This document shows, in pieces, positions 28,056-55,201 of a stretch of DNA of 64,000 bases. Position numbers and translations under genes: made by a program. The notes under the pieces are model-generated. The model did not search any database. It saw only the letters and a list, made by a program, of their open reading frames with translations, and had not been told where the DNA came from. The DNA is from Bacteroidota bacterium (GTDB lineage: Bacteria; Bacteroidota; Bacteroidia; Bacteroidales; JACABE01), in assembly GCA_026391675.1 (NCBI GenBank), contig JAPLDQ010000009.1, positions 4,436-68,435 on the forward strand, written 5' to 3'. Position 1 is the first letter of the stretch; every line of letters starts with the position of its first letter.

Positions 28056-28094
28056 TTAATTATTTTTTTAAATTGTTTACTTTCATTAAAAGAC

Positions 28095-28133: not shown

Positions 28134-28162
28134 TAGATACTAAACTCTGTTCTATACAAGTC

Positions 28163-28549: not shown

Positions 28550-28550
28550 G

Positions 28551-29006: not shown

Positions 29007-29060
29007 TTGATTGTTTAAATATTTCTTTTTCGCTTATTTACCCTTTTTAAAAAGGGAGTG

Positions 29061-29068
29061 CAAAATTA
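29061..29068 (-). promoter_or_regulatory. -7 box TAATTTTG upstream of rplM
   Basis: Plus strand reads CAAAATTA, 55 nt upstream of the rplM ATG. The palindrome CCCTTTTTAAAAAGGG (29041-29056) lies at the predicted 5' end of the leader. Confidence 0.45.
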
Positions 29069-29357
29069 GTATTTATTTTTAATATAACAAATTTTACCAA
29101 CATAAATTTGTTGATAATCTGAAAAAATAATTTTTAAAAACTAATAAAATTTATTTTCTTTCAAAAAAAACTGTAAATCTTTCCAACCTTTTTTAAAAAA
29201 TTGAGTCTTATTAATATAGACTTTATAACATTTTATTTATTTCCCAAAAAAAGTAATGCAATCCATTTCTTTTTATTTTCAGCGTAACAAAATTAAAAAT
29301 CAAAAATAATTTTATTTTATATTGTTAAATTTTAGTTATTTGTTATTTTAAAAACAG

Positions 29358-29365
29358 TATATTTG
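29358..29365 (+). promoter_or_regulatory. -7 box TATATTTG upstream of the 896-aa T9SS cargo gene
   Basis: Exact TAnnTTTG. Its last G is the first base of the track's GTG start, which argues for the ATG at 29401. Confidence 0.5.
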
Positions 29366-29400
29366 TGAAAACCAAAAATAATCAATTAATACTAATTAAA

Positions 29401-32091
29401 ATGAAAAAAAATTTATCAGTTATCGCATTGCTTTTAATTTGCAATTTTATTAGTTTTGGACAAGATTTAACGGTTAAACCTTCGTTTGTTTCAATTGCAA
29501 ATACTCAGGAAAAACAGGGGTTTGACCAAGATTTTAAGCAGAAGATGGTTTCCAAAACCAAAGCTGTTATTTGGTCTTCAAACATGCTAAATGCCAGCCA
29601 ATGGGTTGCTGCAAAACTAGCGGATCAAAGTTCAACTATCACAAATCAGTGGGAATGGATAGCTGATACCTCTGCTTTTTCTTACTATTGGAAATATTAT
29701 GTTGGTTCATTAATGGGTTCTGCAACACCAATGCAGGGCGTTTTTTATTTTGATGGCATTACTAATATTTTGAATGCAAATTATGGGGTAACCAACACTA
29801 CATTAACCAATGCCATTGCAATCAGCACAATTGGACATCCTACAGTAAATATTAAATTCTACCAATTGTACAAATCGTTTAATGTCGATACTACAATTTT
29901 AGAAGTAAGTACTGATAATATAAACTGGAATAGTATTATAGTTAATCCTAAAATTCCAGGCATGGTAAATACATACACATACGGTTGGAAAGAGTACAGC
30001 CTGACACAATGGATCGGAAATAAGTCTCAGGTATGGATAAGATTCAGGTTTTCTTCTCCCGGAACTACTACAAGCGGTGCACAATACAGCGGGGGTTACG
30101 GCTGGGCTATTGATGATGTTGAATTATTTGACCCGGCTAATAATAATATACAAATAAACAGAACTACTTTGTATAATGGCTATTCGAAAATACCTTCTGG
30201 TCTGGGAATGCCAATGACTTATGATGCAGATTTAGAAAATCTGGGTGGTTTATCTCAAACAAATGTAAAATTACATGGGGTTGAATTAACTACAGCAAAA
30301 GATTCTTCTAGTTTAGGGATAACTTTAAATACGGGTCAAAGTATTACAAATGTTTCCGTTGCCAGTAATTTCTTTATTCCACCATCAGTTTTAGGTACTT
30401 ACAAAGTAATGTCGTATATTTCAAGTGATTCGATTCCATTTTTACTGGCTCAGGATACTTTTGATGTAAATGTAGTCTGTAATACCTGTATGTATTCAAG
30501 AGACTATGATAACTATACCGGTTCAAGATGGGCAGGTACAACAGGTACATTAGCTGATCCTTATACTGCCTGTAGTATATTTCAGGTTGGTAGCGACAGA
30601 ATGGCTTATGGGGTTAATTTTGTGGTAAATAAGGAAAGCAAACCAGGTTCAAGGGTCAGAGCTGTTTTATATAAATTTGATTCAGGAACATTTGCAAGAT
30701 ATATAGTTGCTCAGTCAAATAATTATTATATTACTGCAGCCGATATTCCGACAACTGTTCCGATACAACACCCGCCTTCAATAAGTCTTGCATTTACGTC
30801 AGGATATACCATGCAGAAAGATTCTATGTATTATATTGGTGTTATGGTTTATGGAGGTACTGATACAGTAAAAATTGCCACAGACAATTCAGCTATCCCT
30901 CAAAATTCCCAATCTTCCCAGTTTTTTAATACTACAGCAAATGCATGGTATATTTGGACAACAGGAAATGTTCCTCCATTAATGATACGTACAATTTTTT
31001 CTTCATCAACTACACTTCCTTCAAATGCAGGTGCTATTACAGGTTTAACATCTGTATGTCAGGGACAGAGTCTGGTAAATTACAGTGTTCCGGCAATCGC
31101 TAATGCAACATCTTATGAATGGACATTGCCTTCGGGTGTTACAGGAAGCAGTTCAACAAATACAATTACTGTGAATTACAGCAATACAGCAGTATCAGGT
31201 AATATTTATGTGAGAGGTGCTAATGCTTTTGGAAATGGTGTAAATTCGGCTTTAGCAATTAATGTTAATTCATTACCTCCTAATGCTTTAATTATTTCAG
31301 GAGCTACAAGTGTTTTATCAGGACAGCAGAATGTTGTATATTCAGTTCCTGTAAATGCAAATGTAACATCCTATATATGGACATTGCCCACAGGATGCAC
31401 CGGTACAAGTAATACAAATCAAATTACTGTCAATTTTGGATCAACTGCATTTTCAGGAAATATTATTGTAAAAGGAATTAATGCTTGCGGAACCGGACCA
31501 ATAAATTCTTTATATGTTACAGTTAATCCATTAGTTCCGAATTGTTCAGCCCAATTTAATATGGTTGCTGATACCATTCCACATGTTTATTCAATTGTAA
31601 ATAATGCTTCCGGCATTCCTCCATTGCATTTTTACTGGAGTTGGGGCGATGGAACACATGATACAACAGCACTTCCGGTACATACCTACAGCACAGGAGG
31701 ATATTATAATATCTGTCTTAAAGTTACAGACTCTGTAGGTTGTATTTCAACATACTGCGATTCTACTTTTTTACAGAAAGGTACAAATAATATGATATCT
31801 GTTAAAGTATATCCGGGTGCTTTTTTAGGTATAGATAATAATTCATCCACTGAAAAGATAAAAATATATCCCAACCCGGCTACTTATAAATTAACACTGG
31901 ATTTACAACAACTAAAAGACTTGCATAATACGATAATTTACATTTATGATATTCAGGGGCAGTTAATATTACAGCAAACTATAAATGATAAAGAGACAGA
32001 ACTTAATATAAGTAGTTTTGCCAAAGGCGTATATGTTATTAAGGTAAATAATGATAAGCAGAGAATAGTGAGTAAATTTGTTAAGGAATAG
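29401..32091 (+). CDS. Large T9SS cargo protein: N-terminal MAM/choice-of-anchor-J-like domain, two PKD-like ~85-aa modules, one PKD domain, type-A CTD
   Basis: Signal peptide MKKNLSVIALLLICNFISFGQ. GGYGWAIDDVELFD. Duplicated modules I(T/S)G.TSV..GQ..V.YSVP..ANATSY.WTLP.G.TG.S.TN.ITVN...TA.SGNI.V.G.NA.G.G (about 31021-31275 and 31276-31530). PKD core WSWGDGTHDT...HTYSTGGYYNICLKVTDSVGC. CTD IYPNPATYKLTLDL...GVYVIKVNNDKQRIVSKFVKE. Confidence 0.8.
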   Translation: MKKNLSVIALLLICNFISFGQDLTVKPSFVSIANTQEKQGFDQDFKQKMVSKTKAVIWSSNMLNASQWVAAKLADQSSTITNQWEWIADTSAFSYYWKYYVGSLMGSATPMQGVFYFDGITNILNANYGVTNTTLTNAIAISTIGHPTVNIKFYQLYKSFNVDTTILEVSTDNINWNSIIVNPKIPGMVNTYTYGWKEYSLTQWIGNKSQVWIRFRFSSPGTTTSGAQYSGGYGWAIDDVELFDPANNNIQINRTTLYNGYSKIPSGLGMPMTYDADLENLGGLSQTNVKLHGVELTTAKDSSSLGITLNTGQSITNVSVASNFFIPPSVLGTYKVMSYISSDSIPFLLAQDTFDVNVVCNTCMYSRDYDNYTGSRWAGTTGTLADPYTACSIFQVGSDRMAYGVNFVVNKESKPGSRVRAVLYKFDSGTFARYIVAQSNNYYITAADIPTTVPIQHPPSISLAFTSGYTMQKDSMYYIGVMVYGGTDTVKIATDNSAIPQNSQSSQFFNTTANAWYIWTTGNVPPLMIRTIFSSSTTLPSNAGAITGLTSVCQGQSLVNYSVPAIANATSYEWTLPSGVTGSSSTNTITVNYSNTAVSGNIYVRGANAFGNGVNSALAINVNSLPPNALIISGATSVLSGQQNVVYSVPVNANVTSYIWTLPTGCTGTSNTNQITVNFGSTAFSGNIIVKGINACGTGPINSLYVTVNPLVPNCSAQFNMVADTIPHVYSIVNNASGIPPLHFYWSWGDGTHDTTALPVHTYSTGGYYNICLKVTDSVGCISTYCDSTFLQKGTNNMISVKVYPGAFLGIDNNSSTEKIKIYPNPATYKLTLDLQQLKDLHNTIIYIYDIQGQLILQQTINDKETELNISSFAKGVYVIKVNNDKQRIVSKFVKE

Positions 32092-32139
32092 AAATATTAT
32101 TGAAAACCTAACAGTTTTAAAACCTGTCAGGCTTTCAAC

Positions 32140-32273
32140 ATAAAAATTATTTTGCAAATTATTATATTACTTTTGATTTTAATTAAACAAAAATATTATG
32201 AAAAAGCTCATTGTTTTTATTGTCGTATTTTATGTTGTGAATATTGCGAATGCTCAATGGCAACAGACAAGCA
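32140..32273 (+). repeat. 5' module copy A (promoter + leader + signal peptide), duplicated at 33448-33581
   Basis: Manual alignment: only two mismatches in the 58 nt before the ATG, and few in the signal-peptide codons up to AATGCTCAATGGCAA. Confidence 0.85.
32168..32175 (+). promoter_or_regulatory. -7 box TACTTTTG
   Basis: Exact TAnnTTTG, 23 nt before the ATG at 32198. The same octamer sits at 33486-33493. Confidence 0.55.
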
Positions 32274-33373
32274 TGAATAATTATTCTGTTAGATCTTTAG
32301 CACTTCATGACAGTTGTTTATTTGCAGGAACTTTTGCAGGAATTTATAGATCCTTAAATAATGGGACTAGTTGGATTCCTGCTAATAATGGCTTAGCTTA
32401 TACCGACATAAATACCTTATCAATAAAAGATAGTAATATTATTGCCGGAGCTATTAGAGGAGTTCATTTATCTACTAATAATGGAAGTAATTGGGTTGAT
32501 AAAACTACAGGGATAGATAACGATTTTATTTATGCATCTGCGTTTAAAGACAGCAATATATTTATAGCCTCAGATGCGATTTATTTATCTACGGATTTTG
32601 GTAACACGTGGGTTAATAAAAGCATTGGTCAACCTACCAGTTGTTCAATGACATCTTTTACTATAAATGGTAATAATATATTTGCCGGTGATTATTATAA
32701 TGGTGTATTTTTATCTCAGAACAATGGAAATTCCTGGATTCATCTAAATTTAGGCATTACTTCATGTTATGGTGTAAATGCCTTAGCATCAGTTGGGAAC
32801 AAAATTTTTGCTGCTACAGTTACAAATGGGGTATATTTATCTGTAAATAATGGGAGTACCTGGTCAGCAATAAGCAATGGATTACCAACTTCTTATTTAG
32901 CACAAACATTTGCAATTTATGATAATATTATTTATCTAGGAACTATGGGTCGTGGTGTTTTTATGTCAAAAGACTTTGGAAGTAACTGGACTGATATTAA
33001 TTTTGGTTTGTCAAATCTGGAAATCATGTCATTAGCTGTTAATAAAGATTTTCTATTTGCGGGTACCAACAATACAGGAGTATGGAGACGTTCCTTAATT
33101 GAAATATTGGACGTTAAAGATGGTAATTTTAATCAAATTATTAATATTTATCCAAATCCTGTTAAAGATAAGCTAAATATTGATTTACAGGATTTGAAGA
33201 ATTTAAAAAATGCAAGTCTTTCAATATATGATATTCAGGGTAAATTGCTTTTAAATCAATATATTACACAAGCAAAAACTGAAATAAATATTCAGTATTT
33301 TACCAAAGGAGTATATATTGTAAAAGTGTATACCGGAAATAATGTAATAGTAGATAAATTTATTAAAGAATAA
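32198..33373 (+). CDS. BNR/Asp-box (sortilin/Ycf48-like) beta-propeller repeat protein with T9SS CTD
   Basis: Signal peptide, then six S.(N/D).G..W repeats (SLNNGTSW, STNNGSNW, STDFGNTW, SQNNGNSW, SVNNGSTW, SKDFGSNW). CTD IYPNPVKDKLNIDL...GVYIVKVYTGNNVIVDKFIKE. Confidence 0.8.
   Translation: MKKLIVFIVVFYVVNIANAQWQQTSMNNYSVRSLALHDSCLFAGTFAGIYRSLNNGTSWIPANNGLAYTDINTLSIKDSNIIAGAIRGVHLSTNNGSNWVDKTTGIDNDFIYASAFKDSNIFIASDAIYLSTDFGNTWVNKSIGQPTSCSMTSFTINGNNIFAGDYYNGVFLSQNNGNSWIHLNLGITSCYGVNALASVGNKIFAATVTNGVYLSVNNGSTWSAISNGLPTSYLAQTFAIYDNIIYLGTMGRGVFMSKDFGSNWTDINFGLSNLEIMSLAVNKDFLFAGTNNTGVWRRSLIEILDVKDGNFNQIINIYPNPVKDKLNIDLQDLKNLKNASLSIYDIQGKLLLNQYITQAKTEINIQYFTKGVYIVKVYTGNNVIVDKFIKE
33188..33373 (+). 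repeat. 3' module copy A (CTD-coding end), duplicated at 35385-35570
   Basis: The first 100 nt differ at two positions from the copy at 35385. The last ~42 nt including the stop are identical. Confidence 0.85.
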
Positions 33374-33447
33374 ATTAAATTTGAATTTTATGTTATAAGC
33401 CCAGACTGGATTAAAAACCTTGTCAGGACTTAATAAAGCTTATAATA

Positions 33448-33581
33448 TCTTGCAAAAATAAAAATTGTTTTGCAAATTATTATATTACTTTTGATATTAA
33501 TTAAACAAAAATATTATGAAAAAGCTCTTTGTTTTTATTGTCTTACTTTATTTTGTGAATATAGCGAATGCTCAATGGCAA
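33448..33581 (+). repeat. 5' module copy B
   Basis: See 32140-32273. Confidence 0.85.
33486..33493 (+). promoter_or_regulatory. -7 box TACTTTTG
   Basis: Exact TAnnTTTG, 23 nt before the ATG at 33516. Confidence 0.55.
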
Positions 33582-35570
33582 AGAACTAATGGTCCTATTG
33601 GTGGTAATATTCTTTCGTTTGCTATCACAGGTACTAATGTATTTGCCGGAACAGCAGGTGGCGGAATCTTCCTAACTAGTAATAATGGCTCAAGTTGGAC
33701 AGCAGTAAATAATGGATTAACGGATTTAACTGTTTCAGCATTAGCTGTAAATGGAATTAATATTTTTGCCGGAACAAATGCAGGTGTTTTTTTATCAACA
33801 AACAATGGAACAACATGGACTGCAGTTAATAATGGATTAGTTACTGGTTTTGGTATATCTTCTTTAACCGTAAGTGGTACAAAAATTTATGCGACAACAC
33901 TAGGAAGTGGCATTTTTGTATCCACAAACAATGGAACGAGTTGGACGGCAATAAATAATGGGCTTACACAATTGGGTTTTCGCTCATTGGTTGTAAAAGG
34001 GTCAAATATATTTGCATGTGCAGGAACTTCAGGAATATTTTTATCAACAAATAATGGCAGTAGTTGGACTACAGTTAACAATGGAATTGCTGCCGGTTAT
34101 GGAATTGAATCATTAGCAGTTTGTGATTCAACTTTAATTGCTGGTGCAAATGGAGCTACAGTGTTTTTTTCAACTAACAATGGAGCAAGCTGGATTCCCA
34201 CTCATATTGGCAATCCTGCTCTAAATTGTGGTATTACTTTTGCATTAGCAGTAAGTGGAAATAATATTTACGCTGGTACTTATGGATATGGTGCTTTTAT
34301 GACAACAAATAATGGTGTTAGCTGGACACCAGTTAATAGTGGATTATTCAGTAGTAAAATTTGGGCTTTTGCTATAAATGGTACAAATATTTTTGCCGGA
34401 ACAGGGGATTATGGAGGTGTGTTTTTATCAAATAATAATGGAACAAATTGGAGTGCAGTAAATAATGGAATTGTAAATTCAAATGTTTTATCATTAGCTT
34501 CAACTGACAATAATTTATTTGCAATAGCAGATTTTGCAATGGCAGAATTAATACCTAGTGTTTATCGTACAATTAATGATGGTGTTAATTGGACCTCATC
34601 AAATACAGGATTAACAAGTATTAGTCAAAAACTAATAACCACAAATGGGAATCTGGTTTATGAAGGAACTCAGGAAGGATTATTTGTATCAAATGATTAT
34701 GGAGTTAATTGGACACATATAAATGATGGACTAATCAATACTTGTATTAATTCAATAGCATTTAATGGCTCAAATATATATGTTGGGACTTTTCAAGGTG
34801 TAGTTCTATCAACAGATAATGGTTTGACCTGGAATGCTATTAATAATGGCTTAAATAATTTATATATATCAAGAATAGCAGTAAAAGGGAATAATATCTT
34901 TGTTGGAACAGGTGGTGGGATTTATATGTCATCTAATAATGGTTCAACATGGAGTAATGCCAATAATGGATTAACAAGTAATCAGATTTTTTCTATAATT
35001 AGCTCTGATAATAATCTTTATACAAGCAATACCAAAGGAGTCTTTTTATCTACAAATAATGGAGCAAATTGGAATAAAATTAGTCATAGCTTTGCAGATA
35101 CTGCAATATTATCATTAGTTGCAAGTGGATCAAGTATTTTTGCCGGTACTTCAGGTAATGGCGTGTTTTTATCAAATAACAATGGAAATAATTGGTCAAA
35201 TATTGGATTGTCTAATTCTATTATAAATTCTATGATAATAAATGGAACTAATATCTTTGCAGGGACAGATGCACTTGGTGTATGTAAAAGACCACTTTCT
35301 GAAGTTATTGGCATTTCTGAAAATACAAATAAAAATATTATTGTTTTTCCTAATCCTGTAAAAGACTTACTCACAATTGATTTTCAGGATTTGAAGAATT
35401 TAAAAAATGCAAGTCTTTCAATATATGATATACAGGGTAAATTGCTTTTAAATCAAGATATTACACAAGCAAAAACTGAAATAATTGTTCAGCAATTTAT
35501 TAGGGGAGTGTATTTCTTAAAAGTAAATACAGGAAATAATGTAATAGTAGATAAATTTATTAAAGAATAA
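33516..35570 (+). CDS. BNR/Asp-box beta-propeller repeat protein with T9SS CTD (13 repeats, long paralog)
   Basis: Thirteen copies of G(V/I)F(L/V)S.NNG..W..(V/I)NNGL spaced about 40-47 aa apart. CTD FPNPVKDLLTIDF...GVYFLKVNTGNNVIVDKFIKE. Confidence 0.8.
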   Translation: MKKLFVFIVLLYFVNIANAQWQRTNGPIGGNILSFAITGTNVFAGTAGGGIFLTSNNGSSWTAVNNGLTDLTVSALAVNGINIFAGTNAGVFLSTNNGTTWTAVNNGLVTGFGISSLTVSGTKIYATTLGSGIFVSTNNGTSWTAINNGLTQLGFRSLVVKGSNIFACAGTSGIFLSTNNGSSWTTVNNGIAAGYGIESLAVCDSTLIAGANGATVFFSTNNGASWIPTHIGNPALNCGITFALAVSGNNIYAGTYGYGAFMTTNNGVSWTPVNSGLFSSKIWAFAINGTNIFAGTGDYGGVFLSNNNGTNWSAVNNGIVNSNVLSLASTDNNLFAIADFAMAELIPSVYRTINDGVNWTSSNTGLTSISQKLITTNGNLVYEGTQEGLFVSNDYGVNWTHINDGLINTCINSIAFNGSNIYVGTFQGVVLSTDNGLTWNAINNGLNNLYISRIAVKGNNIFVGTGGGIYMSSNNGSTWSNANNGLTSNQIFSIISSDNNLYTSNTKGVFLSTNNGANWNKISHSFADTAILSLVASGSSIFAGTSGNGVFLSNNNGNNWSNIGLSNSIINSMIINGTNIFAGTDALGVCKRPLSEVIGISENTNKNIIVFPNPVKDLLTIDFQDLKNLKNASLSIYDIQGKLLLNQDITQAKTEIIVQQFIRGVYFLKVNTGNNVIVDKFIKE
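35385..35570 (+). repeat. 3' module copy B
   Basis: See 33188-33373. Confidence 0.85.
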
Positions 35571-42610: not shown

Positions 42611-43198
42611 ATGAAAAAGATCTTATTTTCAATTTTGTTATTCACGATGATGTTTTCAACTTTTGGGCAAGACCAAAAAGTTAAAAAGAATGTTGAAAGT
42701 AGTTCAAAAAAGAAAATATATCAGATAGAATCCAATGGATTATATGGTTTTGTGGATGCTAATGGAAAAGAAATAATTAAACCGAAATTTGAAACTGTTG
42801 ATGAATTCGGAGAAAGACGAAAAGACTGGGCTTTGGTTTTACAGGATGGGTTATATGGTTTTATCAACAATGAAGGGCTTGAAGTTGTAAAACCGAAATA
42901 TGATGCTATAGCATTTTTTGGCGAATATCATGAAGACTGGGCTATGGTTATAAAGGATGGTTTAATTGGATTTATTAATACTCAGGGTATTGAAGTTGTT
43001 AAACCCCAGTATGATGCAGTTAATTTATTCGGAGAATATTATTATAAATGGGCTTTGGTCGAAAAAGATGGCTTATTTGGTTTTATTGATAATAAAGGAG
43101 TTGAAGTTGTAAAACCTAAATATGACTATTTTATTAGAGGTAACCCTCTTACAGGATTCTTTGGTGGTGGAAATCAGGAAGATATTGAATTTAAATAA
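42611..43198 (+). CDS. WG-repeat (KWG-type beta-repeat) secreted protein
   Basis: Signal peptide, then GL(Y/I/F)GF(V/I)(D/N)..G.E(I/V)(I/V)KP(K/Q)(F/Y)(E/D) repeated four times. Confidence 0.75.
   Translation: MKKILFSILLFTMMFSTFGQDQKVKKNVESSSKKKIYQIESNGLYGFVDANGKEIIKPKFETVDEFGERRKDWALVLQDGLYGFINNEGLEVVKPKYDAIAFFGEYHEDWAMVIKDGLIGFINTQGIEVVKPQYDAVNLFGEYYYKWALVEKDGLFGFIDNKGVEVVKPKYDYFIRGNPLTGFFGGGNQEDIEFK
42737..43135 (+). repeat. In-frame tandem repeat, 111-nt period (about 3.6 units), encoding the WG repeats
   Basis: GAAGTTGT(A/T)AAACC... recurs at 42881, 42992 and 43103, spaced exactly 111 nt. Confidence 0.8.
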
Positions 43199-46388: not shown

Positions 46389-46396
46389 TAAATTTG
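46389..46396 (+). promoter_or_regulatory. -7 box TAAATTTG for the RND operon
   Basis: Exact TAnnTTTG. Its TTG is the track's start at 46394. ATG 46412 lies 16 nt downstream. Confidence 0.5.
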
Positions 46397-46411
46397 CAAA
46401 AAAGAATAAAA

Positions 46412-47467
46412 ATGAGAAGTTTTAGTTTCATACTGCTAATAACGGTATTTGTTTTTTATGGCTGTACTAATGGCAAATCAAAGAATGATACAAAAGATAA
46501 GGCTAAAGACAAAGGACAGGCAAAGGTTGAAGGTTTTCTGGCAAAGCCAAGCTTGCTGATTAACAATATTACAGTTTCAGGTTCATTATTAGCTTTTGAA
46601 GAAGTATCATTAATGAGCGAAATGTCAGGAAGGGTTGTATTTATTAACCTTCCTGAAGGAAAAGTGGTTAAAAAGGGAAGTCTGCTGATTAAACTTTTTG
46701 ATGATGATTTGCAGGCAAATCTAAATAAACTCCAAACAGAACTGGCTATACAGGAAAAAATTCTGAAAAGACAAACTGAATTACTGAAAGCAAATGGTAT
46801 CAGTCAGAACGATTATGATCAAACCTATTTGCAGGTAAATTCAATTAAAGCCAACATAGATGTTCAGAAAAGTCTGATACGTAAAACTGAAATACTGGCT
46901 CCATTTGATGGAGTTATTGGTCTGCGAAATATAAGCATTGGTGCTCAGGTTTCTCCATCAACCCTTTTAGCCACTATACGTATGGAGGATAAGTTAAAAC
47001 TTGATTTCAGCATTCCTGAAAAATACAGCAGTGAGGTAAAACCCGGATTGAAAGTTAAATTCACAGTTCATGGAGATGATACACCTTTTGATGCTGTCGT
47101 TATTGCAACTGAAGGTAGTATTGATGCAACAACCAGAAATTTAAAAGTCAGAGCATTGGTTAATTCAAAATCCAGTAATTTAGTCCCCGGCGGATTTTCT
47201 ACAGTAATGCTTTCTTTAGGTGAAAATAAAAATGCTATTCTTATTCCAACACAAGCCATAATTCCTCAGGAACGCAATAAAAATGTAATTGTTGCTAAAA
47301 ATGGACTGGCTCATATTATAAAAGTTACTACTGGTATTCGCAAAGCCTCAAATATTGAAATTATTGAAGGTGTTAATGCCGGAGATACAGTTATTACAAC
47401 AGGTTTGTTATTTCTGAAAGAAGGTGCCAAGGTGTCATTTTCAAATGTAAAAACCGAAGACATATGA
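46412..47467 (+). CDS. RND efflux periplasmic adaptor (membrane fusion protein)
   Basis: Lipoprotein-type signal (…FVFYGC), coiled-coil hairpin region, beta-barrel/lipoyl motifs (ILAPFDGVIG). ATGA overlap with the pump gene. Confidence 0.9.
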   Translation: MRSFSFILLITVFVFYGCTNGKSKNDTKDKAKDKGQAKVEGFLAKPSLLINNITVSGSLLAFEEVSLMSEMSGRVVFINLPEGKVVKKGSLLIKLFDDDLQANLNKLQTELAIQEKILKRQTELLKANGISQNDYDQTYLQVNSIKANIDVQKSLIRKTEILAPFDGVIGLRNISIGAQVSPSTLLATIRMEDKLKLDFSIPEKYSSEVKPGLKVKFTVHGDDTPFDAVVIATEGSIDATTRNLKVRALVNSKSSNLVPGGFSTVMLSLGENKNAILIPTQAIIPQERNKNVIVAKNGLAHIIKVTTGIRKASNIEIIEGVNAGDTVITTGLLFLKEGAKVSFSNVKTEDI

Positions 47468-50400
47468 TTATTTCAGATTTAGCATTGAAGCGTCCTGTAG
47501 GCTCAATCGTATTAAGTCTTACAATTATCTTACTCGGTATTGTTGGTTTTAGCTTTCTGGGAATACGTTTATTTCCGGCTATTGATCCTCCTGTAATAAC
47601 AGTACAGACAACTTATACCGGAGCAAATGCAGAAATTATTGAATCTCAGATTACTGAACCACTGGAAAAATCGATTAATGGCATTGAAGGTGTAAAATCA
47701 ATTTCTTCAACTTCTGCTATCGGAAGCAGCAATATAACAGTAGAATTTAATCTGGATGCAGATCTTGAAAAAGCTGCCAATGATGTCAGGGATAAGGTTT
47801 CGCAGGCAGTAAAAAACTTACCACAGGATATTGATGCCCAGCCGACAGTTACCAAATCGGATGCCAACAGTGATCCGATTATTATGCTGATTGCACGAAG
47901 TACAAATATGAATGCCATTGAGTTGAGCGATTATGTCGAAAATATTTTGTTGGAAAAATTTCAAACAATACCCGGCATAAGTTCTGTAGTTATTTATGGA
48001 CAGCAAAAACCTGCAATGCGGTTGTGGCTAAATCCCGAAAAAATGGCAGCTTTGTCTATTACTGCCAGTGATGTTAGTGTTGCATTGGCTAAGGAAAATG
48101 TTGAAATGCCAGGTGGTAAAATCAGAGGTAATAATACTGAACTGATTGTTAAAACTTATGGAAGACTTACCACGGAAGAAGATTTTAATAACCTGATTAT
48201 TAAACAGATTAATAATCAGGTAATACGATTTAGTGATATTGGTGAAGCCATTCTTGGACCTCAAAATGATGAAACCGGAGCAACAATTAATGGAGTTACA
48301 GGTGTTACTTTAGCTTTAATTCCTCTACCGGGTGCCAATAGCATTAAAATTTCTGAAGAATTTTACAAAAGACTCGATCAGGTTAGCAAAAACCTGCCCA
48401 AAGGCTTAAAATTGGATGTTAGTCGCGATAAGTCTATTTTTGTTAAACAATCTGTAAATGATGTTATTGAAACATTGGGAATCGCTATATTTTTAGTAGT
48501 ATTGATTATTTTCCTTTTTTTCAGGAACTGGATTATTGCTATGCGTCCGTTGATTGATATTCCTGTTTCCTTAATAGGAACATTTTTTGTTATGTATTTA
48601 CTGAATTATTCTGTTAATGTCCTTACATTACTTGGGATTGTTCTGGCTACAGGTTTAGTGGTAGATGATGGAATTGTTGTAACCGAGAATATTTTTAAAA
48701 GAATTGAAAAGGGAATGGATAAATGGCAGGCAGCTTTTGAAGGTACTCGCGAAATATTTTTTGCTGTAATATCCACTTCACTTACCCTGGCTATTGTTTT
48801 TATACCCGTTGTTTTCTTACAGGGTTTTACAGGCAGGCTATTCCGTGAGTTTGGTATTGTTGTAGCCTCAGCTGTACTTATTTCTGCTTTGGTATCATTA
48901 ACACTTACACCTGTATTAAATGTAAAATTAGGTGGTTCAGCGTCACATCATTCAAAATTTTATCTGGCAACTGAAGATTTTTATGTAAATCTAGAAAACA
49001 GATACAGGAATATGCTGGGGTTTTTTATTAATAGAAAATGGATTTCAATAATGATTCTTTGTTCTTGTGTTGTATTGATTTTCATTTTTATGTTTTTCAA
49101 TGTTTTAAAATCAGAATTAGCTCCTTATGAAGACCATAGTTATATTCGTTCAACAGTAACTGCTCCTGAAGGAACCGATTACAGCAGTACAAAAAAAATA
49201 CTGGAAAAAATCGCCAGAAAACAAATGGATTCGATACCAGATGCAAATTTTATATTTGTTCGTTATGGTGGAGGCGGTGGAGGCAGTTCCAGCGCCAATT
49301 CAGGCTTTGTTATTACATTTCTTCCTGACCCAAGTGAACGAAAGATTACACAACAACAAGTATATGATAAGTTGCAGAAAATGTACAAAAGTATCCCTGA
49401 TGCACGTATTAGTGCCATGCAGGAAGCAACAATAGCAACTACATCATTTGGTGGCTTGCCGGTACAGTTTGTTTTGCAAAATATTGATTTTAATAAGTTA
49501 AAACAGGTATTACCAAAATTTTTGGAAGAAGCACAAAACAGTCCGTATTTTACAAATGTTGATGTTAACCTCAAATTCAACAAACCTGAATTAAATATTA
49601 CCGTTGACCGTTTAAAAGCTACAAGTCTTGGTGTAAGTGAAAAAGATGTTTCTGATGCACTTGATCTTGCTTTAAGCGGAGGCAGATATGGTTATTTTTT
49701 ACGGAATAATAAGCAATATTTTATTATTGGTCAGGTTGACAGGGAAGACAGAAACAAACCTGCTGATATTTCTTCCCTTTATGTCAGAAATAATGCCGGA
49801 AAAATGATACAACTTGACAATCTGGTAAAAATAGAGGAAAATAGTAACCCGCCTGCCTTATATCATTTTAATCGTTATAAATCTGCTACTGTTTCTGCAA
49901 ACCTTGGACAAGGAAAAACCTTAGGTGAAGGCATAAAAGAAATGCAGCGCATTTCTTCAAAATTACTGGATGAATCGTTCAGTACTGATTTGGCTGGCTC
50001 TTCCAGAGATTTTGCTGAAAGTAGTTCTAATATCTTATTTTCACTAATACTTGCAATTTTATTAATTTATCTGATTCTGGCTGCACAATTCGAAAGCTTT
50101 CTTGATCCGTTAATAATTATGCTAACAGTTCCAATGGCTTTCACAGGAGCTATTCTTTCATTATGGATATTTGGACAAACATTAAATATTTTTTCTGAAA
50201 TCGGTATGATATTACTCATTGGAATAGTAACGAAAAATGGAATATTAATTGTGGAATTTGCTAACCAGAAACGAAAACTTGGGTTATCAAAAAAGGAAGC
50301 TGGCTTTGAAGCTGCTTCAGCCCGCTTTCGCCCTATTATTATGACTTCATTAGCTACAATGTTTGGTGCACTGCCAATTGCTTTTGCTATGGGTTCCGGT

Positions 50401-50532
50401 GCTGAAAGTCGTGTTTCATTGGGTATTGTCGTTGTTGGTGGGTTGTTATTTGCGTTGATACTGACTTTATTTGTTATTCCTGTTATGTATATTATGATGT
50501 CTCGGAAAAAAGAATTAGGAAATAGGAATTAG
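47464..50532 (+). CDS. RND (AcrB/HAE1-type) efflux permease
   Basis: 1022 aa, 12-TM plus two large periplasmic loops. RPV.S.V....I.L.G, VVDDGIVVTENI, GILIVEFAN. Unusual YGGGGGGSSSANSG insert. Confidence 0.95.
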   Translation: MIISDLALKRPVGSIVLSLTIILLGIVGFSFLGIRLFPAIDPPVITVQTTYTGANAEIIESQITEPLEKSINGIEGVKSISSTSAIGSSNITVEFNLDADLEKAANDVRDKVSQAVKNLPQDIDAQPTVTKSDANSDPIIMLIARSTNMNAIELSDYVENILLEKFQTIPGISSVVIYGQQKPAMRLWLNPEKMAALSITASDVSVALAKENVEMPGGKIRGNNTELIVKTYGRLTTEEDFNNLIIKQINNQVIRFSDIGEAILGPQNDETGATINGVTGVTLALIPLPGANSIKISEEFYKRLDQVSKNLPKGLKLDVSRDKSIFVKQSVNDVIETLGIAIFLVVLIIFLFFRNWIIAMRPLIDIPVSLIGTFFVMYLLNYSVNVLTLLGIVLATGLVVDDGIVVTENIFKRIEKGMDKWQAAFEGTREIFFAVISTSLTLAIVFIPVVFLQGFTGRLFREFGIVVASAVLISALVSLTLTPVLNVKLGGSASHHSKFYLATEDFYVNLENRYRNMLGFFINRKWISIMILCSCVVLIFIFMFFNVLKSELAPYEDHSYIRSTVTAPEGTDYSSTKKILEKIARKQMDSIPDANFIFVRYGGGGGGSSSANSGFVITFLPDPSERKITQQQVYDKLQKMYKSIPDARISAMQEATIATTSFGGLPVQFVLQNIDFNKLKQVLPKFLEEAQNSPYFTNVDVNLKFNKPELNITVDRLKATSLGVSEKDVSDALDLALSGGRYGYFLRNNKQYFIIGQVDREDRNKPADISSLYVRNNAGKMIQLDNLVKIEENSNPPALYHFNRYKSATVSANLGQGKTLGEGIKEMQRISSKLLDESFSTDLAGSSRDFAESSSNILFSLILAILLIYLILAAQFESFLDPLIIMLTVPMAFTGAILSLWIFGQTLNIFSEIGMILLIGIVTKNGILIVEFANQKRKLGLSKKEAGFEAASARFRPIIMTSLATMFGALPIAFAMGSGAESRVSLGIVVVGGLLFALILTLFVIPVMYIMMSRKKELGNRN

Positions 50533-50937
50533 GAAACTGGAATTAAAAATGAAAAATAGCAATATATTACAAGAAAAATCATATGCTTTTGCAATTAGAA
50601 TTGTGAAAGTTTATAAGTTTCTGGTTGATAAAAAAAAGGAATTTGTTTTGTCAAAGCAATTATTAAGAAGCGGAACATCAATTGGAGCAAATACAGAAGA
50701 AGCAATTGGAGGACAGACAGAAAAAGACTTTTTTGCTAAAATGAATATTGTATATAAAGAAGCCCGTGAAACACATTATTGGATAAGATTATTAAAAGAT
50801 ACGGATTTTTTAGATGAAAATCAGGCACAGTCTTTATTGATTGATTGTGATGAGATATTAAAAATATCTGGCAGTAGTATAAAAACATTAAAAATTAAAA
50901 TGAATAAAATCTTTCCTAATTCCTAATTCCAGATTCC
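50512..50937 (+). mobile_element. Candidate IVS-like cassette: four-helix-bundle ORF bracketed by GGAATTAGGAA-based inverted repeats
   Basis: Left flank GAATTAGGAAATAGGAATTAGGAAACTGGAATT. Right flank TTTCCTAATTCCTAATTCCAGATTCC. 50525-50536 is perfectly complementary to 50912-50923. 50532-50544 pairs 12/13 with 50925-50937. Confidence 0.4.
50549..50926 (+). CDS. Four-helix-bundle protein (23S rRNA intervening-sequence protein / Avd-like family)
   Basis: Family strings LSKQLLRSGTSIGANTEEA, KDFFAKMNIVYKEARETHYWIRLL. 125 aa. Confidence 0.85.
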   Translation: MKNSNILQEKSYAFAIRIVKVYKFLVDKKKEFVLSKQLLRSGTSIGANTEEAIGGQTEKDFFAKMNIVYKEARETHYWIRLLKDTDFLDENQAQSLLIDCDEILKISGSSIKTLKIKMNKIFPNS

Positions 50938-50952
50938 AAATAATAAAACCCA

Positions 50953-52245
50953 ATGAAATCATTTATATCTTTAATATTTATTAGCATAATTTCAATTGCT
51001 AACGCACAGCAGGTTTTAACTGTTGAGGATGCATTAAAAACAGCGTTGAAAAACAATTATGGTATTTTAATCTCCCGCAATGAGACTGAAATATCAAAAA
51101 CTAATAATACAGCAGGAAATGCAGGAATGTTACCAAATATTTCTGCATTTGGAAATGGGAATTTTGAATCAAACAATGTTAATCAGAATTATGCAGGAGG
51201 AACTTCTTCAAGCTATAATGGATTAACGACTATTTCATTAAATGCGGGAACAGAACTTAGCTGGACTTTGTTTGATGGTGGTAAAATGTTTGTTACCAAG
51301 AATAAATTAAGTGAAATAGAAGCGTTAAGTGAAATACAGTTAAAGGATAAAATATTTCAAACCCAATATGATGTTATCTCAGCTTATTTCGATGTAGTAA
51401 GGCAAAAACAACAATTAACTTCAATCAATGAGATTATTAAATATAATACCGAATTGGTTAAAATTCTGGAAATATCCTTTAATGCCGGGTCAATTGCAAA
51501 AAACAACCTGTTGCAAGCCAAAATTGACCTGAATGTTTATAAAGAAAATGCTATAAATCAGGAGTATGTTATCATTGCTGCAAAAAAGACGCTAAACCAA
51601 TTAATTGGCGTAAGTATTGATTCTCCTTTTGAAGTAAATGATTCTATTCCATTAAATTATACTTTTAATAAAGCTGAAATCAATAAAAAACTATTTGCTT
51701 CAAACACTACAATTTTATCCTTTCAAAAAGAAATTGATATAGCTAAACTAAGTTTGACAGAATACAACCGCATGCGTTATCCGCTTATAAATTTAAAAGC
51801 CGGCTATTATTATTCTCATACCGATAATTCTGCTGGTTCATTATTAAAAAATCAGGCTTATGGTCCACAGATTGGCGGTTCAATTAGTATTCCGCTTTAT
51901 CAGTCAGCAAAGATTAACCGGCAAATTTCTATTGCCAGTATTGAGATCCAGTCTGCTACTTTTAATCTTGAAAATTTAAAATCCCAGCTCAATAAAGATT
52001 TGCAAAATGCAATTGTAAGTTATGAAAATCAGCAGCGTTTGCTGGATATTGAAAAAGAAAATAATGCATTTGCAAAGGAAAATCTTGAAATCAGCCTGCA
52101 ACGATTGAAATTAGGACAAACTAATACGATAGAAGTTCATCTGGCTCAGGAAAATTATGTACAATCCATGACAAGACTTATCAATTTTAAATATAATCTT
52201 AAAATTGCTGAAACCAAACTCAAGCAATTATTGGCAGAGTTATAA
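50953..52245 (+). CDS. TolC-family outer-membrane efflux protein (RND partner)
   Basis: Signal peptide, LTVEDALKTALKNNYGI start, two coiled-coil/beta repeats. 430 aa. Confidence 0.85.
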   Translation: MKSFISLIFISIISIANAQQVLTVEDALKTALKNNYGILISRNETEISKTNNTAGNAGMLPNISAFGNGNFESNNVNQNYAGGTSSSYNGLTTISLNAGTELSWTLFDGGKMFVTKNKLSEIEALSEIQLKDKIFQTQYDVISAYFDVVRQKQQLTSINEIIKYNTELVKILEISFNAGSIAKNNLLQAKIDLNVYKENAINQEYVIIAAKKTLNQLIGVSIDSPFEVNDSIPLNYTFNKAEINKKLFASNTTILSFQKEIDIAKLSLTEYNRMRYPLINLKAGYYYSHTDNSAGSLLKNQAYGPQIGGSISIPLYQSAKINRQISIASIEIQSATFNLENLKSQLNKDLQNAIVSYENQQRLLDIEKENNAFAKENLEISLQRLKLGQTNTIEVHLAQENYVQSMTRLINFKYNLKIAETKLKQLLAEL

Positions 52246-52271: not shown

Positions 52272-53582
52272 TTAATAAATATTTGAGCCTAAAGCTATTT
52301 TAAGCTTTAAATAACTCAGGCTATAGTCAATTTTAGCTTTTAATACAGCTAATCCGGCTTCAGATAATGAAGTGGAATTGTCTAATAATTCCAGATTAGT
52401 AATAACACCCGACTTAAAACTGGTTTCGGCTAAATTGTATGCTTTTTCAGCTTGCTGAAGCTGCAATTCAGATTGTTTGATTTTTTGTGCAGCAGATGAT
52501 ATATTAGCCTGACATTCAATAACATCATTTGTGATATTTCTTTTTATAAGTTCAACGTCATCTTTGTTGCTTTCAATTTCTGTTTTGGTTTGTAATTTAT
52601 TATATTTAGTCCGGTTTGCATCAAAAAGAGGTATTTTTAAATTCAGACCTACAGCATAATTTAATTTTTCAGAATATATATCCGGGGTATAACCATTCTT
52701 AAAACCACTGGCAGCAAAGAAATTTAAAACCGGATAATTTTGCATTCCTATCGATTTAAAATGTATTGTTGAAAGTATCGTTTTTTGCTCAGCTATTTTT
52801 ATTTCGTTTCTGGTGTTATATGCAGTAACCAATAATGAATCAGTTGAATTAACTGTTTCCATAGCCAGCAATTCCTTTTTTACTGTTATCTTTGAATTAT
52901 CAGATCTTCCCAGCATAGTATTTAACTGACAACTCTGTATTTTAAGCGCAGTTAGTAAATCGGTTTTTTGATTTTCAATTGCAGAGATTCTTACTTTTGT
53001 AGTAAGTACTTCATATTGGGTAGCTGAACCACTTGCTGCTTTTTTTTCAATAAAATTAAGATGTTCATTCAAAGTACTGAGTTGTTCGTTTTTAATATTT
53101 ATGGCTTCCTGCAGAAATACTATTGAATAATAAATATTAATTACTAAATTAGATAGTCTTTGTTTAAGTTGTGTTGCAGATAAATCAACAATATCCTTAT
53201 TTTGGTTTTCGTAATCTATGTTATTACTGGTTTTCCCAAAATCGTAAATTGTCTGATTGTAATTAACTGTTGCAGAAAAATTATCGGCAGGATTCAGGTT
53301 AAAGCTACCTAATCCGGGCAAACTAATAGTTGCAACCGGTCCAACATGTGTATAATTGGAATTGATTGATATATCAGGAAAATAAGCAGATTTAGCCAAT
53401 CCTATTCTGGCAGTTGCAGCAATCTTTTCCTGTTCACTCTTTTTTATGGATGGATAATTCGTTAATACCTCCTTAAGAACATTTTGTAATGAAAGCGTAT
53501 CATTACCTGAGTTGGATTGTGCTGAAAGCTGAAAGCTGAAAGCTATTAATAATAGTAATAAGCTGATTTTATTTGATTTCAT
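52272..53582 (-). CDS. TolC-family outer-membrane efflux protein (MFS-system partner)
   Basis: Signal peptide, LSLQNVLKEVLTNYPSI start, duplicated TolC repeat architecture. 436 aa. Confidence 0.85.
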   Translation of the reverse strand: MKSNKISLLLLLIAFSFQLSAQSNSGNDTLSLQNVLKEVLTNYPSIKKSEQEKIAATARIGLAKSAYFPDISINSNYTHVGPVATISLPGLGSFNLNPADNFSATVNYNQTIYDFGKTSNNIDYENQNKDIVDLSATQLKQRLSNLVINIYYSIVFLQEAINIKNEQLSTLNEHLNFIEKKAASGSATQYEVLTTKVRISAIENQKTDLLTALKIQSCQLNTMLGRSDNSKITVKKELLAMETVNSTDSLLVTAYNTRNEIKIAEQKTILSTIHFKSIGMQNYPVLNFFAASGFKNGYTPDIYSEKLNYAVGLNLKIPLFDANRTKYNKLQTKTEIESNKDDVELIKRNITNDVIECQANISSAAQKIKQSELQLQQAEKAYNLAETSFKSGVITNLELLDNSTSLSEAGLAVLKAKIDYSLSYLKLKIALGSNIY

Positions 53583-53587
53583 AAGAT

Positions 53588-55201
53588 TTAAGTATTTTTA
53601 ATTTCTTCAGTTTTTTTTATTGAACGTAAAATTACTGTAGGTATAATCCCGATTAAAGTAAACAGTGCCGCAATAAGAAAATCATCATCTATGCCCTGAA
53701 TAAAGGCCTGTTTGCTGATTCCTGAAACAATAATTGCCTTTCCTTGCTGCATCGCTGTGGTCATTGTACTGCCTGCATGACTCTGAAGGTAATATGACAT
53801 ATTTGTAATTACATTTTTAAATTCCTGTGATCCTGATAGTATAGCATTTCCAAATTGCTGGGCATGATAATTTACCCTTGATGCCAGCAGGGTTGTAAAA
53901 ATGGCAACGCCTATACTTCCGGCAATCTGACGAATGGTATTCGTAATGGCTGATGCCTGTGCCATTTTATCACGGGATATTGTGAGCAATGACATAGCAC
54001 TCAGCGGTGTATAAATAATACCCATGGCAAAACCTCTGATGTACAAAGAAGTCATTATAAAGTTATGTTCTGAAAGAAAGGACAGCTTTGAATTTAAATA
54101 AAAGCTGAAAGTAAGTAATATCAAACCGAGTATAATAGGGATTTTAGCTGATGTCTTATTCGAAAAAAAACCGGCCAGAGGCGAAGCAATTCCCTGGATA
54201 ATACCTACAGGTAAAAAGACAGAGCCTGCCTGTATAGCTGTGTATCCTAATGAGTTTTGCAGATAAAGCGGCATAAGGAAAGTACTGCCGAACATTCCGA
54301 TACTGAAAATAAATAAGATGAGGTTTGCAGCCCCAAAATTAGTATTCTTCAATAAACGTAATTCAAGCAATGGGTGCTCTGTAGTGAGTTCATGAGTAAT
54401 AAATACTGCCAGGGCTATTATTGAAATGGCAAAACAAAATAATATATAAGGAGCTGACCATCCCATTGAATTTGTTGCTGCATTTCCTTCAGATAATGCA
54501 AATAATAATACCGGCAGGAATATAACTACGGATATAAAACCAATAAAATCGAATCCTCTGATTTTTTTATTGATATACTCTTTTTGAACAATAATGGTAA
54601 ATAACATAGCCATAATACCAACAGGTATATTTACATCAAATATCAACTGCCAGCTGAAGTTATCGACCAGATAACCACCAATTAAAGGACCAAATGAAAT
54701 TGAAGCAGCTGCTGATATAGCCCAGAAACCAAGTGCTATTCCTCTTTGTTTTACTGGGAATTCTCTTGTAACTATTGCCATTCCAAGTGGCTGAATGGTG
54801 CCGGCACCTAAACCTTGTATAATGCGGGAAATAATTAAAGTGTTCTCATCATTGGAAAGCCCACAGAGCAGAGATCCCAGTGTGAAAAAGAACAAGCCTA
54901 AGAAATATATTCTTTTAAATCCGAATTTATCGGCTATCCATCCCGATGTGGGAAGCATTACTGCCATGGCCAACATATAGGCTGTAATTACCCATTCAAT
55001 TTTATCAAGACCAACACCAAAAGTGGACATAATTTTGGGTAATCCCACATTTACAATTGTGCTGTCAAGCACTGCCATAAATGTACCAATCATAATATTC
55101 GCCAAAACAAACCATTTGTATAAATTGTTTTGAGGATGAAAGCCCGAATCGCGGCTTCTGACTTTACTACGAAGCTTATGGGAAACAGATAATTTACGCA
55201 T
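53588..55201 (-). CDS. DHA2-family (EmrB/QacA-type, 14-TM) MFS efflux transporter
   Basis: FMAVLDSTIVNVGLP, GWIADKFGFKR, 14 hydrophobic segments. TAATG overlap with the upstream HlyD gene. Confidence 0.9.
   Translation of the reverse strand: MRKLSVSHKLRSKVRSRDSGFHPQNNLYKWFVLANIMIGTFMAVLDSTIVNVGLPKIMSTFGVGLDKIEWVITAYMLAMAVMLPTSGWIADKFGFKRIYFLGLFFFTLGSLLCGLSNDENTLIISRIIQGLGAGTIQPLGMAIVTREFPVKQRGIALGFWAISAAASISFGPLIGGYLVDNFSWQLIFDVNIPVGIMAMLFTIIVQKEYINKKIRGFDFIGFISVVIFLPVLLFALSEGNAATNSMGWSAPYILFCFAISIIALAVFITHELTTEHPLLELRLLKNTNFGAANLILFIFSIGMFGSTFLMPLYLQNSLGYTAIQAGSVFLPVGIIQGIASPLAGFFSNKTSAKIPIILGLILLTFSFYLNSKLSFLSEHNFIMTSLYIRGFAMGIIYTPLSAMSLLTISRDKMAQASAITNTIRQIAGSIGVAIFTTLLASRVNYHAQQFGNAILSGSQEFKNVITNMSYYLQSHAGSTMTTAMQQGKAIIVSGISKQAFIQGIDDDFLIAALFTLIGIIPTVILRSIKKTEEIKNT

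Follow-up and report, generated by a model that had tools for sequence, protein, structure and literature searches.

The closest described relatives of the element considered here are the intervening sequences (IVSs) of bacterial ribosomal RNA (rRNA). In Coxiella burnetii, an IVS in helix 45 of the 23S rRNA contains an open reading frame (ORF) of the S23p/four-helix-bundle (4HB) family and is closed by a 28-bp terminal stem (PMC4990558). Immediately 5' of this ORF lie two to three tandem copies of the heptamer GACAGAT, the number being strain-dependent, and the 5' RNase III cleavage occurs at the start of the first heptamer, halfway along this stem (PMC4990558). Leptospira also has an rRNA IVS with an S23p ORF (Ralph & McClelland 1993, as cited in PMC4990558). 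The protein family itself is already known, as are its members in rRNA IVSs, their scattered occurrence in operons, cas loci among them (PMC3936711), and their homology to Avd. The family (PF05635/TIGR02436) is very large, with at least 7998 significant matches in one search, and in 2024 the domain was described as functionally uncharacterised (PMC11270868). Here we analyse a stretch of 64,000 nucleotides from a Bacteroidota bacterium (contig JAPLDQ010000009.1, positions 4,436 to 68,435), called the window below, in which a 4HB gene lies inside an efflux operon of the resistance-nodulation-division (RND) type. The element is an IVS-type cassette in an mRNA operon. Comparison of homologous sequences indicates that the 4HB gene and the heptad arrays around it are an old insertion of such a cassette into the 45-50-nt spacer between the pump gene and the gene of the outer-membrane efflux protein (OEP).

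The operon and the cassette consist of the following parts, in window coordinates:

46394-47467, + strand: RND membrane-fusion adaptor gene, HlyD-type, first of the operon (Pfam HlyD_D23 / HlyD_3).
47464-50532, + strand: RND permease (pump) gene (Pfam ACR_tran, E 2e-283).
50504-50545, + strand: left heptad array, GGAAAAA GAATTAG GAAATAG GAATTAG GAAACTG GAATT, a direct repeat (Tandem Repeats Finder, TRF, period 7 / 14, 50504-50536/45).
50512-50536, + strand: left arm of the best inverted repeat and predicted stem, 25 nt, 88% complementary to the right arm.
50549-50926, + strand: 4HB protein gene, 125 aa (PF05635, 23S_rRNA_IVP / TIGR02436).
50912-50936, + strand: right arm of the best inverted repeat and predicted stem, pairing with 50512-50536.
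50912-50941, + strand: right heptad array, TTTCCTA ATTCCTA ATTCCAG ATTCCAA AT, complement of the left word (TRF 50913-50941, period 7).
50953-52245, + strand: outer-membrane efflux protein (OEP) gene (Pfam OEP).

The left flank of the 4HB gene is built of tandem heptads with the word GGAATTA and the right flank of its complement. Since both flanks are period-7 arrays, the pairing of the arms recurs at offsets of exactly 7 nt, with peaks at shifts of -15, -8, -1, +6, +13 and +20. The original prediction, made from the sequence alone, had noted that several pairing registers are possible, and the flanks it quoted are exact: 50525-50536 is complementary to 50912-50923 at 12/12 positions and 50532-50544 to 50925-50937 at 12/13. 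The main point, that the arms are tandem 7-nt arrays and that this is a rule throughout the family, was overlooked there. The RNA duplex of the two arms is predicted to have 23 pairs (-28.2 kcal/mol), and the minimum-free-energy fold of 50495-50955, a check proposed together with the prediction, is closed by the terminal stem (z = -2.3). The left array supplies the last six codons and the stop of the pump (50512-50532; tail ..SRKKELGNRN-stop), and the 4HB ORF ends with ..KIFPNS-stop inside the right array (stop codon 50924-50926). Both translated tails therefore lie in the repeats, as had been claimed for ELGNRN-stop and FPNS-stop. The exact word GGAATTAGGAA has no second occurrence in the 64 kb.

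The window is AT-rich (34% GC), and short A/T-rich words do recur in it: an 11-mer with one mismatch was observed 6 times against an expected 2.3. The inverted repeat might accordingly be read as chance low complexity of an AT-rich intergenic region, a possibility that we regard as practically negligible. The longest perfect complement between the flanks is 14 nt, whereas the shuffle mean is 5.9 nt and 14 was reached in only 1/2000 shuffles. Smith-Waterman alignment of the upstream flank with the reverse complement of the downstream flank gives a score of 35, reached by 1/283 control genes, and this sole control gene adjoins the heptad arrays of another cassette. The shuffle and control-gene comparisons refute a chance origin, and the same arrangement recurs in orthologues and, with differing words, in 29 loci of at least six phyla.

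The 4HB gene follows the pump gene by 16 nt and precedes the OEP gene by 26 nt, on the strand of the operon, and a terminator scan found no + strand terminator between the pump, 4HB and OEP genes. This spacing, which leaves too little space for a separate promoter or terminator, and the lack of an own terminator indicate that the cassette is transcribed as part of the operon RNA; a sigma-70 promoter scan is uninformative for a Bacteroidota genome. The cassette lies between two protein-coding genes and not in a 23S/16S rRNA helix tip. Such a place is normally empty, in line with the original prediction. A metagenome scan with the OEP protein gave 80 homologous operons (51-65% identical), with the pump-OEP gap measurable in 74. 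The gap is at most 158 nt in 67 of these 74, and a 4HB protein is encoded in 0/80 loci.

The cassette occupies this junction only in the closest relatives of the window: L001 (pump C-terminus 93% identical), L004 (OEP 71%), L014 (OEP 70%), L002, L003 and L005, which share one sequence (OEP 69% for L005), and L022/L023 (OEP 65%). All occupied loci keep the GGAATTA/TAATTCC arms. The 4HB gene at the orthologous site is intact in L001, L002/L005 and L004, and in L014 it has a premature stop. In L022/L023 (2097-2500) there are two tandem internally deleted mini-ORFs of ~36 codons, in which the N- and C-terminal ends are fused (MKKDNVLQEK joined to TLVNDCEKILKITGS...). These mini-copies still stand between GGAATTA / TAATTCC arrays and form a miniature derivative at the orthologous site, resembling a miniature inverted-repeat transposable element (MITE).

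Cassette-free orthologous operons, which the prediction had named as a check, are found in the sister lineages L024-L026 (OEP 63-64% identical), where the spacer has 44-83 nt and no heptads. Their alignment with the occupied sites breaks off at the first heptad and resumes just 5' of the OEP start codon, placing the boundaries of the insert at ~50511 on the left and ~50937-50941 on the right. No target-site duplication is visible at these boundaries when occupied and empty junctions are compared. The pumps of L024-L026 end with ..SGKKD-stop; hence the ELGNRN-stop tail of the window pump derives from the insert, and the anticipated difference of the pump C-terminus is indeed seen. The window and L004/L005 have diverged to saturation at synonymous sites (synonymous divergence, dS, >2), which makes the insertion old, and the non-coding arms still share the word. 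The ratio of nonsynonymous to synonymous divergence (dN/dS) of the 4HB protein against the same-site orthologues is 0.05-0.10. That the locus holds an inserted cassette with the inverted heptad arrays typical of the family is, in our judgement, highly probable.

Other small elements occur at the same junction. In L060 (1691-2501) there is a 157-aa GxxExxY ORF (TIGR04256, E 3e-38) within its own inverted repeat, AATAGAACGCAGATT / AATCTGCGTTCTATT, which contains GCAGATT/GCGGATT-like words and represents a second such family, of small cassettes bounded by repeats at their ends. The pump-OEP gaps of L051, L053, L068 and L077 have 271-439 nt and contain GC-rich palindromes similar to repetitive extragenic palindromes (REPs), such as CCCCGAAGGGG and CCGTAGGGAAT units. 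It seems that small elements of various kinds can settle in the pump-OEP spacer.

The prediction spoke of a mobile selfish cassette. Mobility stands on the evolutionary scale only: GAATTA[CG] arms, for instance, accompany proteins of 62-71% identity both in Bacteroidota and in one Competibacteraceae genome, and to judge from such sequences the cassette has, together with its arms, spread to unrelated sites and phyla over a long timescale. No sign of recent transposition was seen, as copies of one and the same protein (P0090 on 24 contigs; P0017 on 23) always occupy a single site. Neither the single protein nor alignment A1 (28 sequences) found a relative of the subfamily among 2.9 million viral contigs, so a phage-borne origin of the subfamily is not supported. 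The purifying selection on the 4HB protein also shows that it is not a decaying passenger.

The layout is not particular to efflux operons. We chose further loci by protein similarity only and not by their flanks: 18 from species-representative genomes (50-82% identical), 15 annotated plasmid regions (31-55%) and extra contigs for two proteins. They cover Bacteroidota, Cyanobacteriota, Chloroflexota, Spirochaetota, Fibrobacterota, Bacillota (a pseudogene) and a gammaproteobacterium. Nearly all of them have a tandem heptad array 5' of the 4HB gene and a reverse-complement array 3' of it, and this three-part layout is typical of the whole family across phyla. There are at least ten kinds of words (AATTAGG, AATTACG, AATTCGC, AGGTCGG, AGTGATT, ACCAGTG, AAAATCT, AATCCCC/AAATCGT, AAGGATG, CCGCTCT, AAAGAGT, AGTTATG), and in most loci the commonest words of the left and right arrays are reverse complements of each other. 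Across 29 loci the median flank-complementarity score is 37, compared with 16.4 +/- 3.8 for 283 control genes (Mann-Whitney p = 4.5e-18); 93% of the 29 loci exceed the control 95th percentile and 41% the control maximum. This score is a local alignment and replaced RNAduplex energies of 110-nt flanks, which were significant (p = 3e-12) but noisy. A strict detector gave 37 period-7 arrays in 618 kb against 0-3 for each of the periods 5, 6, 8, 9 and 10, and 24 of the 37 are within 150 nt of a 4HB ORF. In minimum-free-energy folds of the cassette +/- 90 nt, at least 24 left-right pairs form in 25/29 cassettes and in 10% of 120 random segments.

In relatives, second copies within one genome or contig likewise carry terminal repeats, which bears on another check proposed for the prediction; an exact look-up of the window protein and of P0001 gave no contig. 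In L008 (2950-4841) two cassettes on the same strand, with proteins 86% identical and the shared word AATTACG, bracket one 341-aa gene. One copy of Nostoc flagelliforme has AATTCGC and the other AATTCGT, and the right arm matches in each; the Chlorohelix copies have the words AAGGATG and AAAATCT. In the P0017 locus (L126-L135) the cassette lies 3' of a 171-aa DUF1016_N ORF that reads into the heptad array (..ELELELGIRN-stop). A short ORF 3' of this cassette may be a DUF1016 C-terminal tail, and the cassette may be inside a broken or split YhcG-type nuclease gene. In L064 (3903-4028) about 18 copies of TTTTACT/TCTTACT lie directly 3' of an OEP gene.

Comparison of words with proteins shows what is kept. 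Proteins 66-71% identical bear unrelated words, for example AGGTCGG and AATTCGC (pairs L108 vs L109-L111, L112 vs L114/L115 and L113 vs L116), and the word GAATTA[CG] is found with proteins only 54-86% identical. Each cassette is self-complementary nevertheless, and the copies within one array are alike. To judge from these alignments, it is the 7-nt period and the left-right complementarity that are conserved and not the sequence. Complementarity kept despite the change of word points to a function or a generating mechanism that rests on matching sides, and we consider it probable that the arrays act by pairing with each other. The covariation fits action in RNA and in DNA alike and does not discriminate between them. 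Copy number varies as well: the left array, ~80 nt 5' of the 4HB start, has AATTACG x3 in L117 and x2 in L118 and L125, which have identical 4HB proteins. This difference is a slippage polymorphism, like that of the Coxiella strains.

We suggest that the cassette works in the operon RNA, in a way for which the Coxiella cleavage result is, by analogy, the best available guide.

Step 1: The cassette would be co-transcribed with the pump and OEP genes.

Step 2: The two arrays would pair in the RNA, and the predicted duplex of ~23 bp would close off the ORF, with slipping possible in 7-nt steps.

Step 3: The duplex would serve as an RNase III substrate, as it does in rRNA IVSs.

Step 4: Cut in this way, the transcript would release the cassette RNA, leaving separate messages for the pump and the OEP.

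We lean towards this reading as a whole, that is, an IVS-type cassette whose arrays pair in the operon RNA and form a substrate of RNase III. Its last part, that the arms pair in RNA and are cut by RNase III, is drawn by analogy with the rRNA elements and is held tentatively. The persistence of the arms despite dS >2 between same-site orthologues counts in its favour. For efflux biology, the model suggests that the OEP in the clade of the window may be expressed from a processed message.

Several points weigh against it. We know of nothing in RNase III biology that explains the strict 7-nt period. Ribosomes that end the pump or the 4HB ORF inside the arms would melt the stem. Arrays are also retained at three of the 15 annotated copies and at several metagenomic copies that differ in orientation from at least one neighbour, and L013 and L104 have same-orientation arrays beside the ORF. 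The arm mismatches, read on the sense strand, comprise 15 of the G:U type, 23 of the A:C type and 60 transversions. There is no excess of G:U, so that the mismatches give no evidence of selection on an RNA stem; this test is a weak one, as slipped registers make most mismatches whole-word variants (the 60 transversions).

The absence of a G:U signature is also what would be expected if the arrays acted in DNA, as terminal or subterminal repeats of a mobile or recombinogenic element, with RNA pairing as a by-product. Hairpins, cruciforms or arm-to-arm copying would then drive insertion, local spread and concerted evolution. All array copies and both arms change their word together at 66-71% protein identity, and templated copying or slippage accounts for such concerted change more readily than compensatory mutations arising step by step; the slipping of heptad copy number between strains (L117 vs L118/L125; PMC4990558) is in accord with this. 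Modules without an ORF, consisting of an array, a loop of ~50-140 nt and the complementary array, also speak for action in DNA. They are found in L083 (3740-4500), where the module is repeated several times 3' of an OEP gene, in L010 (3364-3505, right flank) and in L109 (2669-2872).

Two plasmids point the same way. pEu1 (82 kb) has just two strict period-7 arrays, and these directly adjoin its two 4HB genes. In pAfl69 (69 kb) 10/11 period-7 arrays are at most 4.1 kb away from the only 4HB gene, and nine share its word; the left flank of this gene also carries a second word. Here AATTACG arrays run in frame within the neighbouring helicase and DNA-methyltransferase genes (L138/L139, Dolichospermum pAfl69, record 27263-33661) and translate to ITNYELRITNYEL... 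linker peptides, and complementary, stop-containing arrays stand at gene ends (..IRNS-stop, ..WDNS-stop). A second array, (GGAATTT)x6, is located between the left arm and the 4HB start codon (L110 1385-1430, pAfl69 record ~29023-29088). It has no complementary partner 3' of the gene, and an AATTCCA x3 run is ~2 kb away, at record position 31081. Against action in DNA, the cassette, in which the 4HB gene is the sole ORF, has no transposase, recombinase or nuclease motif and left no target-site duplication, no protein sequence was found at two sites (P0090 on 24 contigs, P0017 on 23), and the 2.9 million viral contigs yielded no member of the subfamily. On balance, we consider the DNA explanation rather unlikely.

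The protein itself gives rise to another explanation. Its membership in the 4HB/23S-IVS-protein family, stated in the prediction, is borne out by matches well above the curated cut-offs: PF05635 with E 4e-25 (88.4 bits vs 33.8) and TIGR02436 with E 5e-31 (107.1 bits vs 24). The only match in the PDB by sequence is 2RLD, an uncharacterised protein with 5 chains in the entry, which covers residues 4-115, end to end, with E 2.5e-31; the Avd structure 4DWL was not matched. From the homology to 2RLD we infer a four-helix-bundle fold and a pentamer for the window protein. The helix-2 motif R-x3-S-x3-N-x2-E is present in LLRSGTSIGANTEEA (R40, S44, N48, E51). The published family motif is GxxRxxxSxxxNxxE (PMC3936711), and its leading G is absent from the corresponding position in the subfamily of the window protein. 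Residues G42, T43, G46, N48, E50 and E51 are invariant in alignment A1. The 4HB protein matched no PADLOC family at E <=0.01, and Rfam gave no match within 50300-51100 at E <=1. The 64-kb window has one 4HB copy.

The arrays could then be putative binding sites of the 4HB protein, with one ring subunit per heptad on single-stranded RNA or DNA. The protein would be autoregulatory or would act in trans on all heptad arrays of the genome, as RAYT does for REP, and the inverted orientation would reflect symmetric binding and not pairing. Five-subunit rings occur in the family, as the 5 chains of 2RLD and the homopentamer of Xcc0516 (XCC0516), a crystallised 4HB/S23p member (PMC4990558), indicate. 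Arrays often have 4-4.5 copies (L107, L109, L110, L111), and ORF-less arrays near a 4HB gene carry the word of that gene. A relative of the family, Avd, binds nucleic acid. This homologous four-helix bundle, an accessory protein of diversity-generating retroelements, also binds the reverse transcriptase (PMC10053308). In X. campestris, a GGGAATC array (#15, 622956-622983) overlaps the start codon of XCC0516, next to bccP (XCC0517), and ~185 more of the 186 GGGAATC arrays of the genome are dispersed (supplement file 2 of PMC4692102). The authors of that paper made no connection between heptamers and the 4HB family. The evidence from words runs the other way: close proteins have unrelated words and GAATTA[CG] spans 54-86% identity, so that sequence-specific reading is not evident. 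Unrelated words at 66-71% protein identity argue against strict sequence-specific recognition by the 4HB protein, and protein-word specificity as a strict rule is rejected. We consider binding an unlikely explanation. The DNA-level and protein-binding explanations are compatible with the RNA model and with each other.

Apart from the operon of the window, the hosts include hsdS-4HB-hsdR, helicase-4HB-methylase, csx2-4HB-cas1, RND adaptor-4HB-pump and glycoside hydrolases, and many relatives are inside restriction-modification, CRISPR or helicase-methylase operons. Co-orientation with both neighbours is seen in 12/15 annotated plasmid copies against 45% of background gene triplets; this count is taken from annotated loci, as naive ORF-based orientation conflicted with the record annotation at some plasmid loci. 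These data bear on the idea that the cassette is a regulatory device of the host, a processing or attenuation site which uncouples the OEP channel from pump expression and in which the ORF is incidental. Within the clade the cassette has stayed at one position, and its arms have survived long divergence. There is also a precedent in the Correia elements (Correia repeat enclosed elements, CREE) of Neisseria, whose stems bind RNase III, are cleaved or protected, and alter the expression of adjacent genes (PMC2649163). However, 67/74 homologous operons do without the cassette, and cassettes of this type also occur in operons of unrelated kinds, with restriction-modification, CRISPR or glycoside-hydrolase genes, and at other RND positions. 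Two lineages have let the cassette decay and retained the operon. The strong purifying selection on the ORF means that it is not incidental. We consider such a device very improbable, and a purely host-regulatory role is unlikely.

Two further repeats of the window stand apart from the cassette. The first is a perfect period-7 array, (GCTGAAA)x3.4, at 53521-53546, in the 5' end of a - strand OEP gene (52272-53582) that belongs to a second, convergent efflux operon (MFS gene 53588-55201, MFS-OEP gap 5 nt); neither a complementary partner nor a 4HB gene is nearby. The second, a 111-nt tandem repeat at 42822-43125 (2.7 copies, 74% identity) in the + strand ORF 42611-43198, is a repeated protein module and unrelated.

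What is new is that 4HB copies outside rRNA are bracketed by complementary heptad arrays which covary as whole words. Heptamers have been reported for the family once, in Coxiella (PMC4990558), and the 4HB/S23p family is unmentioned in the heptamer papers PMC4692102 and PMC4679880. We found no literature linking non-rRNA 4HB genes to inverted heptad arrays; subscription journals were mostly outside this search and an earlier description is possible. The family members interrupt efflux, restriction-modification, CRISPR and polysaccharide utilisation operons, and the fixed non-coding anatomy provides the first concrete testable handle on them, through RNase III cutting, heptad binding and spread in cis. 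For annotation, it accounts for odd C-terminal tails of host genes (ELGNRN-stop, ..NS-stop) and for repetitive NYELRIT-type peptides.

A broader proposal, which is speculative and in our view rather unlikely, is that the 4HB gene and the inverted heptad arrays constitute a distinct, very widespread and unrecognised class of elements, in which the 4HB protein recognises, maintains or spreads the arrays, preferentially in cis, and of which the rRNA IVS is a special case. Were it true, rRNA IVSs would be merely those elements of this class that landed in rRNA. Orphan heptanucleotide tandem repeats have been on record since 1990, and the proposal is a candidate explanation for this long-standing puzzle of bacterial genomes. 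It would explain the short tandemly repeated repetitive (STRR) sequences, the Xanthomonas GGGAATC and the Beggiatoa TAACTGA repeats, as well as the ORF-less hairpins and the invasion of coding sequences in frame.

How far does the cassette resemble the known systems? RAYT belongs to the HUH/Y1 transposases and its catalytic motif is known, and REPs are imperfect palindromes. Like the REP/RAYT system (REPtron), the cassette has a small gene between inverted short repeats that also occur elsewhere without the gene. Unlike RAYT, the 4HB protein has no recognisable catalytic domain, and its repeats are tandem heptads and not imperfect palindromes. Avd shares the homologous fold and the same Pfam/CDD neighbourhood (PMC10053308). 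Unlike avd, the cassette has as its immediate neighbours efflux genes, the glycine-cleavage T protein and one unassigned ORF; in an inspection of these immediate neighbours, no reverse transcriptase and no template/variable repeat pair were found beside it.

Like CREE and MITEs, the cassette is small, has terminal inverted repeats, lies beside or between genes and would be co-transcribed with them. CREE carry 26-nt terminal repeats that are fixed, duplicate a TA target and enclose no ORF (PMC2649163). Unlike them, the arms in the window are 7-nt arrays, variable in word and length across the family, with no target duplication, and enclose a conserved ORF. The cyanobacterial STRR sequences are tandem heptanucleotide repeats. 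Heptamer arrays are also known as GGGAATC in Xanthomonas and GGGGA(C/T)T in Nostoc (PMC4692102), and as TAACTGA in Beggiatoa, cyanobacteria and Bacteroidetes (PMC4679880). The arrays of the family are similar to these orphan repeats in being 7-nt tandems, mostly intergenic and near start codons, with a copy number that varies by species or strain. They differ from them in forming complementary pairs around a specific gene; for Xanthomonas GGGAATC, 70 convergent pairs are reported (PMC4692102).

The rRNA IVSs remain the nearest comparison. The parallel drawn in the original prediction is a real one, since the Coxiella IVS has an S23p ORF, heptamers and a terminal stem cut by RNase III, and this common anatomy makes the analogy well founded. 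The host is different: in the window it is the transcript of a protein-coding operon, the insertion is in an intergenic spacer and not in a helix tip, and the upstream host ORF, that of the pump, reads into the left arm. Unlike the ORF of the Coxiella IVS, which is decaying and thought to be untranslated, that of the window is intact and under purifying selection, and RNase III cleavage, experimental in Coxiella, would be expected here by analogy. In other respects the two agree. The loop encodes a protein of the same family, its ORF is enclosed by a long stem of terminal inverted repeats, and the element would be transcribed only within the host transcript. As in Coxiella, tandem heptamers stand beside the ORF at the stem, and their copy number is variable between strains.

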